From an uncultured bacterium (lineage in GTDB: Bacteria > Bacillota_I > Bacilli_A > RFN20 > CAG-826): a stretch of 64,000 nucleotides of DNA. Of this stretch, positions 9,360-18,306 are shown piece by piece (positions within the stretch are counted from its first letter, which is position 1; each line of letters opens with the position of its first letter). The notes beneath the pieces are model-generated. The model saw nothing but the letters and a program-made list of their open reading frames with translations. It was not told where the DNA came from and searched no databases. Made by a program: the position numbers and the translations under genes. Location: the NCBI GenBank assembly GCA_949297305.1, contig CASFSG010000025.1, positions 12,574-76,573 of the forward strand. The letters run 5' to 3'.

Positions 9360-12002
9360 TTAGTCTAAAGATAAGTCGTCATCAAAGATGGAAATTTGTT
9401 CATAATTTTCTTCCTGTTGTTCATCCTCATGATATCCGTCATTTTTTACTGATTGCTCATTTTCGATGACATTTTGTTCTTCGCCTAGCTTAGAGGTAGA
9501 AATATCAGGTTGATAGCTTTCGATTTTATTATCGATATAAATGCCTTTTTCATCATAGACAAAATCTAGCGAGGCACGATGAGGAATTTTTAAAATTTTT
9601 CGCGCGCATTTATCCATTGGAGTCAAATGGAAGTCATCGACATTAAATTCGAAATAATTTTTATCGCTTAGTAAGGCACGAATGAGTAAATTATCTTCAT
9701 CTTTAGCGATTTTCATCACTTTAATAAGATGCTGAACATCGCTTTTTAAATATTTATATAAGGAAAATGGTCTTGCTAAACGGTTAGTAAGTGGCATATT
9801 AGCAATTTCAAAGATGCGATAAGAACCATTATCTGTTATTAATAACAGTTTTTGTCGCTCTTCTTTCTTGAAGGCTAATACACTAGCGATGGTCGCATCG
9901 TTTCTTAAAGATGACATCGCTTTAATTCCACTGCTTTTTAATAAACTAGGCGAAATTTGATTTTCATTAAAAAACGAGGCATAACCTTCGCTAGTTGCAA
10001 CAAAGATGTTCGAATCGCCTTGCGAATAAGTGACATCGCTAATTTTATCATCATTAAATAAACGCATTGCCGTAATTGGGCGATTATAACGCACAACATT
10101 AAAATTATTCATCGCTACGCGTTTAATTTGTCCGTGCTTAGAAACTAAAACGAAATATAAATCTTCGCGAAAATTATTTAAGACAAAAGCCTTAACGATT
10201 TTATCTTCAGGCTTTAAGGAAATTAAATAATTAATATGCTTGCCTTCGTCTTTCCATTTATTTTCCTGAATTTCATAAACTGGTATGTGTAAAAAATTAC
10301 CGGTTGAAGTAAAGGCAATTAAATAATCGGTCGTTATTGCTTTGCCAATATAAACAATCGCATCACCATCTTTTAAACCAGGTAAAGGATTTTCGCCGCT
10401 CGAGCGATAAGATTTAAGCGATGATCTTTTTATATAACCATCATGCGTTAAAGCAATCATCGTCTCTTCTTTAGAAATTAAATCGCGACGATTGAATGTT
10501 TTAGTTTCTTCTTTATCGATGATTTGAGTTAAACGAGGACGACCGTATTTATTTTTAATTGTCATCAAATCGCTGATTAAGAGGCGACGAAGTTTTTTCT
10601 CATCGTCAAGTAAACTCTGCAAATATTCGGAATCCTCGAGTAAAGAATTCTTTTCATTTTCTAAAGTTAAAATATCGGTATTAGTTAAACGATAAAGTTG
10701 CAAAGAGACAATTGCCTCGGCTTGCTCTTCGTTGAAACCAAATTCTTTTTGGATATTATTTTTTGCATCACCTTTATCTTTTGAGGCGCGAATGACCTTA
10801 ATTAAATCATCGATAATTGAGATTGCTTTAATTAAGCCAATAACGATATTCAGTCTTTTTTTATTGATAGCTAATAAAAAGATGCTTCTTTTAGTTAAAA
10901 CGCTTAACTGATGATTGATATAACAATCGATAAAATCGATTAAATTCATCGTTTTAGGGTGACCTGAAACAATCGCAACCATATTGGCAGAATAAGATGT
11001 TCTTAAAGGTGTTTTATTCTTTAAATATTCTAAAATGATATCAGCTTTAGCTTCTTTTTTTAAATCGACGACGATACGAAAATGCTTGAGATCGCTTTCA
11101 TCGCGCACTTCGATGATGCCACTGACGGAGCGATCGAAACGCAATTTATCAATTTCGAAGGCTAAATCTTTCTTTTGAACTTTAAATGGTATTTCGCTAA
11201 TTACAATTTGGTTAATATCTTTGCCATAGATAATTTCAGTTTTCCCCACTATTTCAATTTTGCCGCGACCCGTTAAATAAATATCTTCGATTCCTTTTGA
11301 TTTATATATTAAACCACCGGTAGGGAAATCTGGACCTTGAACGATGTTTATTAGTTCGTTTATCGCACAATTTTTATTGCGAATGCGATAAATCGTCGCT
11401 TCGATAATTTCACTTAAATTATGCGTAGGAATTTCAGTTGCTAAAGCAACGGCGATGCCATCGCTACCATTGACGAGCAAATTAGGAAAGCGCGAAGGCA
11501 AAACGGTTGGTTCATATTGGCTATCATCGTAAGTTAGTTCCATATCGATTACATTTTTATCGATATCGCGAACCATCTCTTCAGCAATTTGACTCAAACG
11601 CGCTTCGGTATAACGATAAGCGGCGGGACCATCACCATCAATCGAACCTTTATTACCTTGAAAGTCAATTAAAGGATGATTTACTTTCCAATCTTGCGCT
11701 AGCCTCACTAAAGCATCATAAATCGAAGTATCGCCATGCGGATGATAATGGCCCATGACATCACCGACTATTCGCGCACATTTAGTGCGTTTAGAACTAT
11801 ATGTTAAACCAGCTTTTTGCATGGCGTAAATAATTCTTCTTTGAACCGGTTTAAGACCATCGCGAGCATCAGGAATAGCTCGATCTTGAATGACATATTT
11901 AGCGTAGCTAGCATAGCGGCTACCCATAATATCATCGAGTGGTTGCTCTTCGACGATTTCATTAAAGTTTTCAAATTCTTCGATTTGCTTTTTCTTAGCC
12001 AT
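9360..12002 (-). CDS. parC: DNA topoisomerase IV subunit A
   Basis: [24 protein letters not shown]..., [11 protein letters not shown] with the active-site Tyr. No GyrA-box (QRRGGKG) is visible in the C-terminal domain. plsY lies divergent to parE, as in Firmicutes. Acidic C-terminal tail. Confidence 0.8.
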
Positions 12003-13947
12003 TATTAATACCTATTTCAAAATTATCGATTTCAGAAAAATCGACATTTTCTTCAACCCATTTTCTTCTAGCAGCAATATCTTTACCCATTAAAACAGAG
12101 ATTCTTTGTTCGACAACAAGAGGATTATCGATGCCAATTTTTAATAAGTGACGAGTTTTCGGATTCATCGTCGTTTCCCAAAGTTGAGCAGCGTTCATCT
12201 CTCCTAAACCTTTAAAGCGTGAAACCGTCGCTCCGCGACCAACTTTCTCTTTTGCCTGCTTTAACGACTCATCATCCCAGGCGTACTCAAAAATTTCTTT
12301 ATGATTAATTTCTTTTGAAACGCAATATAAAGGCGGCATAGCTACATAGAGGCGACCACTTGTGATAATTGGTCGCATAAAATTATAGAAAAACGTTAAT
12401 AACAATGTCTGAATATGGGCACCATCAGTATCAGCATCTGTCATGATGATGACTTTGCCATAATGCATATCCTCAACATTGAAGTTTTGCCCATAACCAG
12501 CCCCGATGGTGTTGATTAAAGTTGCAAACTCTTCGTTTTTTAACATGCGATCTAAAGTGATGCTATCAGTATTTAGAGGTTTACCTCTGAGAGGTAAAAT
12601 AGCCTGAAATAAACCATTTCTTCCAGTGCGAGCGTTCCCCCCTGCCGATTCGCCTTCAACAATAAATAATTCATTATGTTCGTAGTTTTTCGATTGTGCA
12701 GGAGTTAATTTATCAGAAATGATCATTTCAACTTTTTGTTTTTTATTTGAACGCATCTCTTCCTTAGCTTTTCTAGCAGCAATTCTTACTTCGCTACTAG
12801 CGACGCACTTTTTAATTAAATTGATGGCAAACTCTTTGTTTTCCGATAAATAATAAGTGAAATTAGAATAGACAAAATTATTGACAATTGTTTGAGCTTC
12901 CGGCGTTCCTAATTTGCCTTTAGTTTGTCCTTCATATTCGAGAATCTCTTCGGGAATTCTTAGAGAAACAATTGCGGTTAAGCCTTCGCGGATGTCACTA
13001 CCCTCTAATTTCGTTTTGCTTTTGAGTAAATTATGTTCGACCGCAAAATCATTTACCGCGCGTGTGATGCCGGTTTTAAAACCGATTTCGTGCGTTCCGC
13101 CATCTTTAGTTCGCACGTTATTAGCGTAACTATAAATCGATTCATTATAATCGTCATAACAATACATGAAGGCAATCTCCATTTCGATATTATTTTCTTT
13201 GCCTTCATAATATATCGAATCACCGATTTTGCGTTTATTTTCATTCAAAACATTTAGATATTCTAAAATGCCATTCTCGTAATAATATTCTTCTTTTAAA
13301 TTTTGCCTTTCGTCGATCGCTACAAATTTAACACCTTTGAGAAGAAAGGCTTTTTCGCGGAGGTGATTAGAAATTGTATCCCATTTAAAATCGACGGTTG
13401 AAAAGACATTTGGATCGGGCTTAAAACGAACGAGAGTACCGTGTTTTTTAGTATTGCCAAGAACCTCTAGAGGAGTTTTAAGTTTTCCGCCATTTTCAAA
13501 ACGCAGATGATAGATTTGTCCATCGCGATAAACTGTGACATCGCAATATAAGGACAAAGCATTAGTGGCTGTCGCACCGACGCCATGAAGGCCACTGCTA
13601 GTTGCATAAACTTTACTTGAAAATTTGCCGCCACTATGTAAAGTAGTAAAAATTAATTGTACGGCCGGAACGCCGGTCTTTTTATGGATATCGACAGGGA
13701 TACCTCTACCCTCATCCATAACCGAAACCGATCCATCTTTATGAATGATGACTGTAATCGTTTTGCCAAAACCCGACATCGCTTCATCGACAGCGTTATC
13801 TAAAACCTCCCACACTAAATGGTGAAGACCGCTAGCGTTAGTCGAGCCAATATACATCGCTGGACGTTTTCTAATCCCTTCGATGCCATCTAAAAGATCG
13901 ATATCATCAGCGGTATATCTATGTTCATTATTATATTTATCAGCCAT
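11995..13947 (-). CDS. parE: DNA topoisomerase IV subunit B
   Basis: GHKL ATPase motifs (LHHLVWEVLDNAVDE, DEGRGIPV, GLHGVG). Toprim motifs ELFIVEGESAGG and IMTDADTDGAHI. The gene overlaps the parC start. Confidence 0.8.
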   Translation of the reverse strand: MADKYNNEHRYTADDIDLLDGIEGIRKRPAMYIGSTNASGLHHLVWEVLDNAVDEAMSGFGKTITVIIHKDGSVSVMDEGRGIPVDIHKKTGVPAVQLIFTTLHSGGKFSSKVYATSSGLHGVGATATNALSLYCDVTVYRDGQIYHLRFENGGKLKTPLEVLGNTKKHGTLVRFKPDPNVFSTVDFKWDTISNHLREKAFLLKGVKFVAIDERQNLKEEYYYENGILEYLNVLNENKRKIGDSIYYEGKENNIEMEIAFMYCYDDYNESIYSYANNVRTKDGGTHEIGFKTGITRAVNDFAVEHNLLKSKTKLEGSDIREGLTAIVSLRIPEEILEYEGQTKGKLGTPEAQTIVNNFVYSNFTYYLSENKEFAINLIKKCVASSEVRIAARKAKEEMRSNKKQKVEMIISDKLTPAQSKNYEHNELFIVEGESAGGNARTGRNGLFQAILPLRGKPLNTDSITLDRMLKNEEFATLINTIGAGYGQNFNVEDMHYGKVIIMTDADTDGAHIQTLLLTFFYNFMRPIITSGRLYVAMPPLYCVSKEINHKEIFEYAWDDESLKQAKEKVGRGATVSRFKGLGEMNAAQLWETTMNPKTRHLLKIGIDNPLVVEQRISVLMGKDIAARRKWVEENVDFSEIDNFEIGINNG

Positions 13948-14780: not shown

Positions 14781-15101
14781 ATAGTATTAAATTAGTAGTT
14801 TTTTAGTTAATATTACTTTGGTGCATAAATTATAAACATAGCCGTAGATAAAAAAATATTTATAGTTATTATCGAATGTTTTGATTGACATTTTTTAGTT
14901 TTTCCACTTAGTTGTGTAAAAATAGTTAGCTTACGCATTATTGCTCGACTTAGAGGTCACTACCATAGGTAATAATTTTATAAATTTTGATTAAACTATT
15001 CTTGATTTTGTCACCAAAATTATGACTAAAAAATATTTTCAATTTAGTAAATTTAACATTAATTTTATTTAAATCTATTGGTCTGATTTTATAGTATTAT
15101 T

Positions 15102-15617
15102 TTAATAGCAAATATAAATAAGATTTTCTGCAAACATAAAGCCATATCCATCTTTATCGAAGACGAATGGTCGTTTATCTTCCGCAATATTTAAGATATT
15201 TCCATGGAAAGCGAAACCTAAATCGCGCATTTTAAAATAGATATCATAACGGTCGCTAGTAAGGCTTAGTCCATAAAAGGTGATATTAGGATCAGTAATC
15301 ACAATATCACTAATGCAATAATCATTACTCGCGTTTCGATAGGTTAAATAGCAGACATATTCCTTAGGAAGATATTCTAACCCGTCATCTTTAATAACGA
15401 ATTCATAACTAACATCAAGATAATGTGGAATAATGTCACCTTCAATTAGAAATTCAGCGCACGCTAAATTGAATTCCTCTTCTTTAATTGTTTGATTAAT
15501 CCAATAACTAAAATTTGCGTCGCTTGGCTTATTAGCAACATCGACATGGTTATTATTACAAGATGATAAAATGGGTATTAACATCAATAAAGGAATAAGC
15601 TTATCTTTAATTTTCAT
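15102..15617 (-). CDS. small lipoprotein, paralog B of the island pair; unknown function
   Basis: The track ORF starts at a TTG (15632). ATG at 15617 gives the canonical signal MKIKDKLIPLLMLIPILSSC (lipobox ILSSC). The mature part aligns with the 15607..16017 product (KPxDxNxxYW, YxFxI..G.E..P..YV.Y, I.I.DP.I..Y, M.D.GF). Confidence 0.7.
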   Translation of the reverse strand: MKIKDKLIPLLMLIPILSSCNNNHVDVANKPSDANFSYWINQTIKEEEFNLACAEFLIEGDIIPHYLDVSYEFVIKDDGLEYLPKEYVCYLTYRNASNDYCISDIVITDPNITFYGLSLTSDRYDIYFKMRDLGFAFHGNILNIAEDKRPFVFDKDGYGFMFAENLIYICY

Positions 15618-16017
15618 ATATTCTTTGAACAATTATTGTTTTTCCTTTCTTAAAATAAATTGATAAATAGCCATTATTGCCGGTATAATCATAAATTCCA
15701 CCACCTTCAAAGCCAAAATTATCCAACATAATTGAAACTTTCATTGGGCTAGAATTAAGACAAAAATTATATAAGACAATCTCAGGATCTTTAATCTCAA
15801 TTGTGTCGATGACACCATTTTCAATTTGATAAGAAACATAAGTTTGAGGAAATTCTTGTTCACCTTGTTCATTAATAATAAATTGATAATCTCCATCTAA
15901 ATAAATATTGCTATCGAGATATTGTCTTGAATCATCAAAACTAACCTTTTCACCAAGCCAATAATTTAGATTAGTGTCCCGCGGCTTTTCTAAGTGATTG
16001 CAACTAGAAACACTCAT
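15607..16017 (-). CDS. small lipoprotein-like protein, paralog A; its export signal is cut off by an in-frame TAA (possible pseudogene or cytoplasmic restart form)
   Basis: 136-aa ORF starts MSVSSC. The same frame upstream reads ATG(16056) MKKILLLILPL-TAA(16021..16023)-A-MSVSSC, which is a complete lipoprotein signal peptide apart from one stop codon. Confidence 0.6.
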   Translation of the reverse strand: MSVSSCNHLEKPRDTNLNYWLGEKVSFDDSRQYLDSNIYLDGDYQFIINEQGEQEFPQTYVSYQIENGVIDTIEIKDPEIVLYNFCLNSSPMKVSIMLDNFGFEGGGIYDYTGNNGYLSIYFKKGKTIIVQRIYEN

Positions 16018-16020
16018 CGC

Positions 16021-16056
16021 TTAGAGGGGTAATATCAATAACAATATTTTTTTCAT
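16021..16056 (-). other. detached signal-peptide fragment (MKKILLLILPL-stop) of the paralog A lipoprotein gene
   Basis: ATG at 16054-16056 is preceded by GGAAG 8 nt upstream. Eleven sense codons are followed by TAA at 16021-16023, in frame with the 15607..16017 ORF. Confidence 0.7.
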
Positions 16057-16059
16057 ATC

Positions 16060-18282
16060 TTATGCTTCCATAATAGGACTTACACAATAAAATCCTACAA
16101 AATTTGTATAATTTAATTCATCACTATATTTGCGATTACATGTTTCTGGATCTAATATTAATTCACTACTATAATCTAAATTTGTAACATCGGTCGTTCC
16201 AGGCTTATGCGACCATGTACCATCGGAATTTTGACGATAAAAATGAAAATCATAATCTGGATTTATATTGCTGCCAGCAAAATTAACATCATCAACCACT
16301 AGAGCGATTTTATATGTACCTGGAGGGCAAATTTCGTTTTTATTAATCTCTTCAAAATAAAATTGATATTCAATCGAATCTGCTCTAATCAAATTAACAA
16401 GAAGTTCAATATTAGGGATATCTAGAACATTAATTTGTCTATCCAATGATTGGCCAGGAATGAATAATAGATTTTCATATTTCTCATTCGGATTCCTTTT
16501 CGCGTTTAAAGCATAAGAATAACAATTTGTCCAACTTGGAAGAAGTCCAGTATTCCACTCCCAAGGAAAATAATCTAATTCATAACAAGATAATGGCATA
16601 TTATAGTTAGATACATAAAATTTAATATCTCCAATGCAAATACGGCCTTTATTGTTATCGCCTGTATGTTCACCATTATAATCAGAATAAAAGCGAATAC
16701 GATATGCAGGTTGATTAAATTCAATTTCATAAGTAGTAGGATTATTTCTGTCGCGAGGCAAAGCTGTTTCTGGTGATAATAAGTCAAAAATAGGGATCCA
16801 AGTTCTTCCGATATACTGCTGTAATACAGCGTTTCCATTGGTATCATCGAGCAATTCACTAGTTAATTCTCTCCAGTGAGACAATTCAACATCCATTCGT
16901 GTTATTGCTCTTGGAAATCTAAATTCAATAAAGGCGTAATCAATGCCATTTCTAATTGGTGACATCACGATATATTCATTATGGATATAACCAGTACGAT
17001 ATCTTCTAGTTTCAAAAGTAAAACCATTTACATTATGTTCAATGTAATTCTCTTTGATATCATCGGTGACAGGGTAAGCGTCAGCAAAGCCGTACTCGTC
17101 AGGATGGACGATTGAAATTGCATAATCATTTGGTTTGGTGAATTGTTTTTCACACCAATAAGGGAAAGTTGGTCCAGAAACGGTTGCGGTAAGTGATAAT
17201 CTAATATAATAGATGCTACTACTATTGCTTAAACGAGCGTTATGCCACTCATCGCTAGTTAATGTCCATTTATTTTGGTCAATAGTCCTAGAAGAAGGAA
17301 CATTTTTGTTATTATCTAATATTTCAAAAACAATATAAGTGTTATATTGGATAAACCATTCCTCTTTAAACAAACTATTCCATTCAAATGTCGGCCTAGA
17401 TGTAACATAGTTGCCACTAGTTAATTCAATATTATTTGGATATATTAAATGAGACGCATTATAAAAAGCATCTTTAGCAGCTAAATTCATTGGGAGATTT
17501 AATCTTAAGGTCACAGCATATAAAATTTCGGAGTAAGTCAAATCATCCAAAGTTACATGCGTTAACGCTTTATTATTTACACTATCTCGCCAACCACTAT
17601 GAACATAAATATCTCCAGTTAAAAAATTATAATCATAGGCAATTACTGCATGAGCGGCAGTTGTCGTAGTATTTTTAACATACAAAAGAGTAGGAACGCC
17701 ATCTTTAATATTTTCGATTGTGTGTGCTTTTAAATTTGCCATGTATCTATTTTTGACTTCTACAGATACTTCGCTAGTTGTAAAATCGTTATAATCATAT
17801 AAATAATATTGTAAGAAACTTTGAAGTTGAGAAATATTTAAAGAAAGATATTCTTCATCCATCGAATCAAAATATAAGTAAGTAAAATAATTTTTTGCTA
17901 AGTCAATGAGCTTAGCTTGAAAATAAACACCACTATTATTGGCTACCCATTCAAAATATTCACTTTCTAATAATGCGCTTACCGAATTCATCGGTTCAAA
18001 TTTAATACCAGGAGACGGGGTAGATAACGGAATTAAATAAAATGAATTGTTTATTTTATTTGAATTAAATGTAGCATTTTGTTCATAAACATTCGGAACG
18101 AAATTATCATCCCAATATGTGTCATAATAACTAAGTAACATTCCAAGTGAAACAAAAGCACATGTACCGTGAGTGTTATTGCCAAAATTATTTTTTAAAT
18201 TAAAGAAATAATGCGACGCATAATTATCTTCTAGATATAAAGTATTATCCTGCTCAGTAATTAAAGTATTAAACAAAGTCAT
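16060..18282 (-). CDS. large exported-type protein with an N-terminal clan-CA cysteine-peptidase-like domain (C39-like/C10-like), central beta-rich region and a second C-terminal Cys/His module; signal peptide detached by an in-frame TAG
   Basis: 740-aa ORF. N-terminal HGTCAFVSLGMLLSYYD (Cys41, codon 18160-18162), AAHAVIAYDY (His211) and VHSGW resemble YvpB/C39-like or streptopain-like peptidases. C-terminal WTNCYSYAL (Cys587, codon 16522-16524) and DYDFHFYRQNSDGTWSHKPG (His680, codon 16243-16245). The domain family is recalled from motifs, not searched. Confidence 0.65.
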   Translation of the reverse strand: MTLFNTLITEQDNTLYLEDNYASHYFFNLKNNFGNNTHGTCAFVSLGMLLSYYDTYWDDNFVPNVYEQNATFNSNKINNSFYLIPLSTPSPGIKFEPMNSVSALLESEYFEWVANNSGVYFQAKLIDLAKNYFTYLYFDSMDEEYLSLNISQLQSFLQYYLYDYNDFTTSEVSVEVKNRYMANLKAHTIENIKDGVPTLLYVKNTTTTAAHAVIAYDYNFLTGDIYVHSGWRDSVNNKALTHVTLDDLTYSEILYAVTLRLNLPMNLAAKDAFYNASHLIYPNNIELTSGNYVTSRPTFEWNSLFKEEWFIQYNTYIVFEILDNNKNVPSSRTIDQNKWTLTSDEWHNARLSNSSSIYYIRLSLTATVSGPTFPYWCEKQFTKPNDYAISIVHPDEYGFADAYPVTDDIKENYIEHNVNGFTFETRRYRTGYIHNEYIVMSPIRNGIDYAFIEFRFPRAITRMDVELSHWRELTSELLDDTNGNAVLQQYIGRTWIPIFDLLSPETALPRDRNNPTTYEIEFNQPAYRIRFYSDYNGEHTGDNNKGRICIGDIKFYVSNYNMPLSCYELDYFPWEWNTGLLPSWTNCYSYALNAKRNPNEKYENLLFIPGQSLDRQINVLDIPNIELLVNLIRADSIEYQFYFEEINKNEICPPGTYKIALVVDDVNFAGSNINPDYDFHFYRQNSDGTWSHKPGTTDVTNLDYSSELILDPETCNRKYSDELNYTNFVGFYCVSPIMEA

Positions 18283-18306
18283 CGTCTCACTATCGGTTAA
18301 ATACGC

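Follow-up and report, generated by a model that had tools for sequence, protein, structure and literature searches.

Does an ochre codon in the middle of a lipoprotein signal peptide mark a gene that is being lost, a protein that is now kept inside the cell, or a surface protein whose export can be turned on and off? The question is raised by three adjoining minus-strand genes, referred to here as genes 1, 2 and 3, in the window, which is the whole 64,000-nucleotide stretch of DNA that was analysed. The genome to which the window belongs (G000) is a metagenome-assembled draft of 1.22 Mb in 93 contigs, 94% complete. A first-pass annotation, made from the sequence alone, had noticed an early in-frame stop in both gene 1 and gene 2, and had read the pair as a sign of selection against export or of a switchable export state.

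An interrupted lipoprotein signal peptide

Gene callers give gene 2 only as a 136-aa ORF (16017-15607). The longer gene to which this ORF belongs has the following features.

15607-16056, minus strand: gene 2, a small lipoprotein gene of 149 codons, broken at codon 12 (window sequence; intact alleles of 149-150 aa in relatives)
16065-16069, minus strand: GGAAG, a Shine-Dalgarno-like element 8 nt 5' of the gene 2 ATG, within the last codons of gene 1 (window sequence)
16054-16056, minus strand: ATG, the original start of gene 2, at which intact alleles start too (window sequence and relatives)
16021-16023, minus strand: TAA ochre codon, codon 12 of gene 2, in the hydrophobic core of the signal peptide; TTA (Leu) in all relatives (comparison)
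16015-16017, minus strand: in-frame ATG, which encodes Met14 in the intact protein and follows the TAA after 3 nt, without a Shine-Dalgarno element; a possible low-level restart codon
16000-16002, minus strand: Cys codon of the lipobox (VSSC), the lipidation site in the intact gene 2 protein (window sequence; family alignment)

The minus strand reads ATG AAA AAA ATA TTG TTA TTG ATA TTA CCC CTC TAA GCG ATG AGT GTT TCT AGT TGC, and the translation across the stop is MKKILLLILPL*AMSVSSCNHLEKP, also read as MKKILLLILPL*AMSVSSC and onwards. This agrees with the first reading of the locus as MKKILLLILPL, TAA, one Ala codon and a second ATG. A lipoprotein signal was defined as a positive n-region, a hydrophobic h-region and a lipobox of the form [LVI][ASTVI][GAS]C approximately 15-35 residues from the start, and gene 2 has all three parts (MKK / ILLLILPL(L)AM / VSSC), both in the window and in the intact alleles. 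The frame from start codon to lipobox is broken in the window and in two other assemblies, L019 and L020, and is unbroken in all other relatives. The signal that had been proposed, with a KK n-region, an h-region and the lipobox VSSC, is thus borne out by the sequence, by the relatives and by the conserved Cys of the family, and the sequence likewise agrees with the earlier remark that a GGAAG element precedes the upstream ATG and that none precedes the second one.

Gene 2 belongs to an uncharacterised family of 59 representative clusters (at 50% identity), the members of which are 160-190 aa long. Nearly all of them begin with a lipoprotein signal, and Cys19 is at least 90% conserved in a 49-member alignment. 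The motif KP.DTNL.(F/Y)W follows straight after this Cys, and ITDP.I..YGL..NS is found further on. Searches with gene 2 returned no Pfam or NCBIfam match and no PDB sequence match, and its AF2 model (pLDDT 87) has no meaningful fold neighbour in the PDB, the best TM being 0.37. The enzymes that process lipoproteins are encoded in the genome, as Lgt (PF01790, G000:C3, 164 bits) and LspA (PF01252, G000:C31, 115.8 bits) were both found with scores above their cut-offs.

Origin of the stop codon

An assembly or sequencing error would be one explanation for the TAA, in keeping with a metagenome-assembled draft that contains some strain duplication, and such an error had been named at the outset as a finding that would overturn the first reading. 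A lookup of the exact 136-aa product returned two further ENA assemblies, L019 (ERZ16268138), which over 8 kb shows 4 SNPs relative to the window (99.95% identical), and L020 (ERZ17292902), with 22 SNPs over the same length (99.73% identical). Both independent assemblies share the window's TAA as well as its TAG amber codon in gene 1. As the identical TAA is present in three assemblies with different SNP profiles, it is not an assembly or sequencing error. Nor does translation appear to continue through the codon, whether by readthrough or by its decoding as an amino acid: no suppressor tRNA with anticodon CTA, TTA or TCA was found by Aragorn in the whole genome (36 tRNA genes), TAA ends ordinary genes genome-wide, and in-frame stops are rare. 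Rescue of gene 2 by frameshifting was rejected as well, since a stop comes up in both other frames no more than a few codons from the TAA. Altogether, an artefact or a recoded codon is extremely unlikely.

The site reads TTA in the conspecific contigs L021, L023, L024 and L025 (98.4-99.1% identical to the window), and in the sister-species contigs L010, L022 and L054 (~90.7% identical); the sister species (genome G002, record CASFQR01) encodes a 150-aa protein with 93% identity. The 90%-identity protein cluster holds eight distinct sequences, seven of which are 149-150 aa long with Leu at position 12, and the 136-aa form is the window's only. Contig L021 also spans gene 1, where it has GAG in place of TAG and encodes a 796-aa protein. 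Since the relatives have TTA and GAG, both stops are single-base substitutions derived in the window's lineage, with the gene 2 change at position 16022 and the gene 1 change at 18309. The TAA had been described as one change away from TTA, and TTA is indeed the codon that every relative has.

Three further searches covered the locus. The JGI metagenomes were scanned with a degenerate 40-mer across the TAA site, with no match; a contig scan with the intact gene 2 protein returned the sister-species record CASFQR01 and nothing more; and a search with the detached 41-aa N-terminal peptide of gene 1, for TAG carriers with an intact gene 2, gave no new contigs.

The neighbouring genes and the cassette in other genomes

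The genes on either side of gene 2 are lipoprotein genes too, and their features are as follows.

16060-18432, minus strand: gene 1, a large peptidase-like lipoprotein gene, 790 codons in the window, cut at codon 42 (intact 796-aa allele in L021)
18307-18309, minus strand: TAG amber codon, codon 42 of gene 1; GAG (Glu) in the conspecific contig L021 (comparison)
17472-17473, minus strand: position at which gene 1 of the stop lineage lacks, in frame, 18 nt (six codons) that L021 and L053 have (SNP table and comparison)
15102-15617, minus strand: gene 3, an intact paralogous lipoprotein gene with 35% identity to gene 2 (ORF and comparison)

The TAG of gene 1 is preceded in frame by MKNKKANFILFLIQIISLSFCLIPHNNNLSSISDTDRHIRA, and the ORF that remains after it encodes 740 aa (18282-16060). 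The first-pass annotation held that genes 1 and 2 had each lost the export signal through a single nonsense change. The part about single-base stops stands (GAG to TAG and TTA to TAA), but the TAG of gene 1 sits 21 codons past the lipobox Cys and so lies outside the signal peptide. Gene 3 had been said to keep an intact signal, and its translation (15617-15102) agrees, with MKIKDKLIPLLMLIPILSSC as the signal. Genes 2 and 3 share 11 nt, where the end of the one overlaps the start of the other, and with such an overlap the stop upstream may lower the expression of gene 3.

The assignment of gene 1 as peptidase-like is just a lead, as scores for its family are below the curated cut-offs: gene 1 scored 25.1 bits against NF045837 (Mplas_Cys_pep, putative cysteine peptidase; cut-off 45), and its homologue in genome G026 scored 14.9 against PF13529 (Peptidase_C39-like; cut-off 24). 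The C-terminal part of the protein contains invariant Cys and His motifs. The structure model is poor (mean pLDDT 55, with the N-terminal 340 residues below 50), and a fold search with this poor model detected only a beta-sandwich of CBM/discoidin-like type, located centrally in the protein. A SNP at window position 16067 changes the penultimate residue of gene 1 from Gly to Glu, and the same SNP weakens the Shine-Dalgarno element of gene 2, which is GGAAG in the stop lineage and GGGAG in the intact strains.

The cassette is an accessory, strain-variable module, comprising one peptidase-like and two small lipoproteins. At the cassette locus of the sister species genes 2 and 3 are kept and gene 1 is absent, and in G026 the large gene is found together with three gene 2 paralogues in tandem. 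Similar arrangements occur with other small genes, unrelated in sequence to gene 2: in G036 (L049, G036:C1:105000-116000) a small lipoprotein gene from a different family stands behind each of two large genes, and on contig C47 of G000 (L050) a 424-aa paralogue of gene 1 is followed by a 189-aa lipoprotein gene. This recurrent layout of a large hydrolase plus a small lipoprotein hints, as far as gene order can, at cognate partner proteins, and the parts of the cassette are plausibly linked in function.

The middle one of the three G026 paralogues (L047, G026:C35, 3761-4416, minus strand) has a frameshift about 70 codons in, which leaves its signal peptide intact and puts its body into another frame. 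The gene 2 family undergoes birth-and-death turnover.

Haplotypes, linkage and age of the stops

A SNP table covering positions 15000-18900 places the window, L019 and L020 in one clade, and L021 and L023-L025 in another. In the flanking genes, 15-37 SNPs separate the stop clade from the intact clade. The series that yielded intact carriers are ERZ16268179, ERZ17292903 and ERZ16268071. A strain comparison had been suggested as a check on whether the two stops vary together, and they do, the TAA and the TAG occurring together in all three assemblies of the stop clade. A fourth contig, L053 (ERZ16268194 scaffold_20488), also has the TAG, and its haplotype is a mosaic, like the stop clade in the 5' part and like L021 in the 3' part, the latter including the 18 nt that are deleted in the window, which indicates that recombination between the lineages occurs. 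L053 corresponds to window positions 18358-16457, loses homology at 16457 inside gene 1 before gene 2 is reached, and then runs into an adh_short gene that was not found in G000. The break reflects either a chimeric assembly or a rearrangement that has damaged gene 1 further.

Only 2 nt separate gene 2 from the closest intact allele, the stop being one of them. Synonymous divergence between the window and L021 is 0.006 for gene 1 and 0 for gene 2, and ranges from 0.035 to 0.22 for efp, UPF0154 and parE. Both the 2-nt difference and the low synonymous divergence of the cassette indicate that the lesions are very young. The pN/pS of the cassette is 0.66, compared to 0.04-0.07 in the flanks.

In comparison with the sister species, synonymous divergence is 0.11-0.23 for genes 2 and 3, and approximately 0.55 for efp and parE. 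That the cassette is far less diverged at synonymous sites than the flanking housekeeping genes suggests, from these sequence comparisons, that it may have been exchanged horizontally or swept across strains and species in recent time. L020 shares the cassette haplotype of the window, and its parE (12001-13947) differs from the window's by 17 SNPs, almost all of them synonymous, suggesting that a recombination tract ends between plsY and parE.

Rarity of interrupted genes in the genome

Whether two adjacent stops are more than random decay depends on how common such lesions are in this genome. From 409 kb of the sister genome G002, 363 ORFs of 100 aa or longer were searched against G000 with tblastn; with shadow ORFs left aside 350 remained, and 321 of the 350 had orthologues in G000. 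A true internal stop was seen among the 321 orthologues in just gene 2 and one duplicated hsp20 copy, the other flagged cases being start-site differences or contig ends. In-frame stops occur in approximately 1 of 321 orthologues (~0.3%), and the reverse comparison, into the sister genome, gave a similarly low rate. With ~0.3% of genes disrupted, the chance of a second lesion next door is approximately 1%. The adjacency of the two stops is therefore non-random, as the first-pass annotation had argued, and functional coupling of genes 1 and 2 would be the simplest explanation for it.

A six-frame scan found approximately 105 lipoprotein-like signals in the genome, and the truly interrupted ones are the two on contig C25, those of genes 1 and 2. 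Lesions scattered across the whole island had been put forward as the pattern expected of generic pseudogenisation. Part of this pattern is seen, in the frameshifted paralogue in G026 and in the missing gene 1 of the sister species, two observations that also speak for the cassette being dispensable. Stops that appeared inside matches to distant homologues were not counted as decay, the case that was checked (G001) being the natural end of a shorter gene. Near-duplicates are present in G000 for an hsp20 gene (contigs C7 and C49, the C7 copy having a stop at codon 103) and for an RNase III-like gene (C65 and C23), which suggests that the bin contains redundancy or more than one strain.

Probable early gene loss and its alternatives

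The TAA is very probably a very young, lineage-specific null allele within an accessory cassette, paired with a null allele of gene 1, and thus a case of early gene loss. The TTA to TAA change in one strain lineage would cut the gene 2 precursor after 11 residues, and the native product, exported and lipid-anchored, would no longer be made; at most, reinitiation at the ATG 3 nt past the stop might yield a little signal-less cytosolic protein. In this lineage the adjoining gene 1 carries a second recent nonsense change, GAG to TAG, and the two stops would jointly inactivate a surface cassette that other strains have intact and the sister species has only in part. With one partner lost, or with the module no longer of use, the other partner would have been free to decay.

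The selection against export proposed at first would require that the stops detach the signal peptides and that the restart ATGs give cytosolic proteins which are used in the cell, and this is very unlikely. The distance of 3 nt between the TAA and the next in-frame ATG of gene 2 is compatible with termination-reinitiation, which, in the systems tested in PMC10666635, works at very short range after an early nonsense codon and is almost abolished at 24 nt; the downstream ORFs of both genes are, moreover, still open. Gene 1, however, has its ATG 24 nt from the TAG, too far for such coupling on that evidence, and neither ATG has a Shine-Dalgarno element. The presence of an ATG soon after each stop had been taken as meaningful, but both are ordinary Met codons that pre-exist in the intact alleles, and the youth of the lesions, with gene 2 only 2 nt from an intact allele, is alone sufficient to explain why the downstream frames are open. 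A restart product of gene 2, without n- and h-regions, would be neither exported nor lipidated and would miss its normal compartment, and as the family members are essentially all lipoproteins, a cytosolic role would be without precedent. That stop and sense codons instead interconvert often, turning surface display on and off, is more improbable still. Both states do exist within the species, in samples of the same accession series, but the change is a plain transversion, the site shows neither a simple-sequence repeat nor an invertible segment nor a change in homopolymer length, and the A7 tract after the ATG is identical in all conspecific strains. The stop carriers form a haplotype separate from that of the intact carriers, and the linkage of the stop alleles to many flanking SNPs makes them a lineage marker and not a switch. 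With no other interrupted signal in the genome either, the data do not support a switchable state or an 'export off' state with retained function.

Another possibility is that the two early stops were positively selected, the shedding of a surface peptidase/lipoprotein module being advantageous through escape from antibodies or from phages that use it as a receptor, or through relief from its cost. This seems unlikely overall, though it has several observations in its favour. The knockouts adjoin each other in a genome in which in-frame stops are this rare, the stop haplotype comes from several samples in two accession series, and the pN/pS of the cassette is as high as expected of a surface protein under host pressure. 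Both stops (codon 12 of 149, codon 42 of 796) are also unusually N-terminal: the two separate probabilities for stops this early are 0.047 and 0.12, and the joint one is approximately 0.006, a post hoc figure for two events in which nonsense-mutable sites are weighted uniformly. Purely neutral decay does not predict stops this early in both genes. Nonsense changes make up 2 of approximately 15 differences in the cassette, where ~6% would be expected at random, a slight excess that is not significant. Early stops might have been favoured, with the same low likelihood, as the cleanest nulls, which spare the cell truncated exported fragments. A combined version, in which adaptive nulls with early stops avoid loading the Sec/Lgt pathway with truncated products and a little gene 2 protein is still made by restart, without its signal, is an unlikely extension of this idea. 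Against adaptive loss, there are two events only, with no independent recurrent knockouts seen in separate lineages, intact alleles are at least equally common in the same sample series, and gene 3 is still intact. The adjacency is accounted for just as well by functional coupling combined with drift in a clonal lineage.

Early gene loss thus being the preferred reading, gene 2 should be annotated in this lineage as a 149-codon lipoprotein pseudogene, and not as a 136-aa cytoplasmic protein. The case is one of routine accessory-gene loss caught very early, and its use is mainly in annotation.

Comparison with known systems

A close parallel is the strain-specific nonsense unitary pseudogene of host-associated bacteria with reduced genomes. 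As in such pseudogenes, one base has changed in a codon that is conserved in relatives, the ORF is otherwise intact, and the allele is confined to one lineage and to an accessory cassette partly missing from related genomes. The present case differs in that two adjacent genes are hit, the stops are very N-terminal and the genome is otherwise almost without pseudogenes. In Mollicutes, phase-variable surface lipoproteins are turned on and off via repeat slippage or site-specific inversion. The small AT-rich genome and the presence of expressed and non-expressed states of a surface lipoprotein among strains are similar here; in contrast, the change at this locus is a point substitution on a distinct haplotype, with no repeat tract or invertible element and no sign of reversibility.

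The layout of the cassette also resembles, by analogy only, pairs of a hydrolase and a cognate small lipoprotein in the style of a protease and its inhibitor or an effector and its immunity protein. The differences are that no sequence or fold link to a known inhibitor or immunity family was found for gene 2, and that not all of the small proteins behind the different large paralogues are homologous to one another. Circumstantial evidence that the large and small proteins cooperate comes from the two knockouts occurring as a pair, from the intact alleles of conspecific strains and from the absence of gene 1 in the sister species, and the pairing could guide a first functional test of this uncharacterised family. 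The likeness lies in the layout itself, which is seen on contigs C25 and C47 of G000, in G026 and in G036, and in the persistence of the small genes without the large gene in the sister species.
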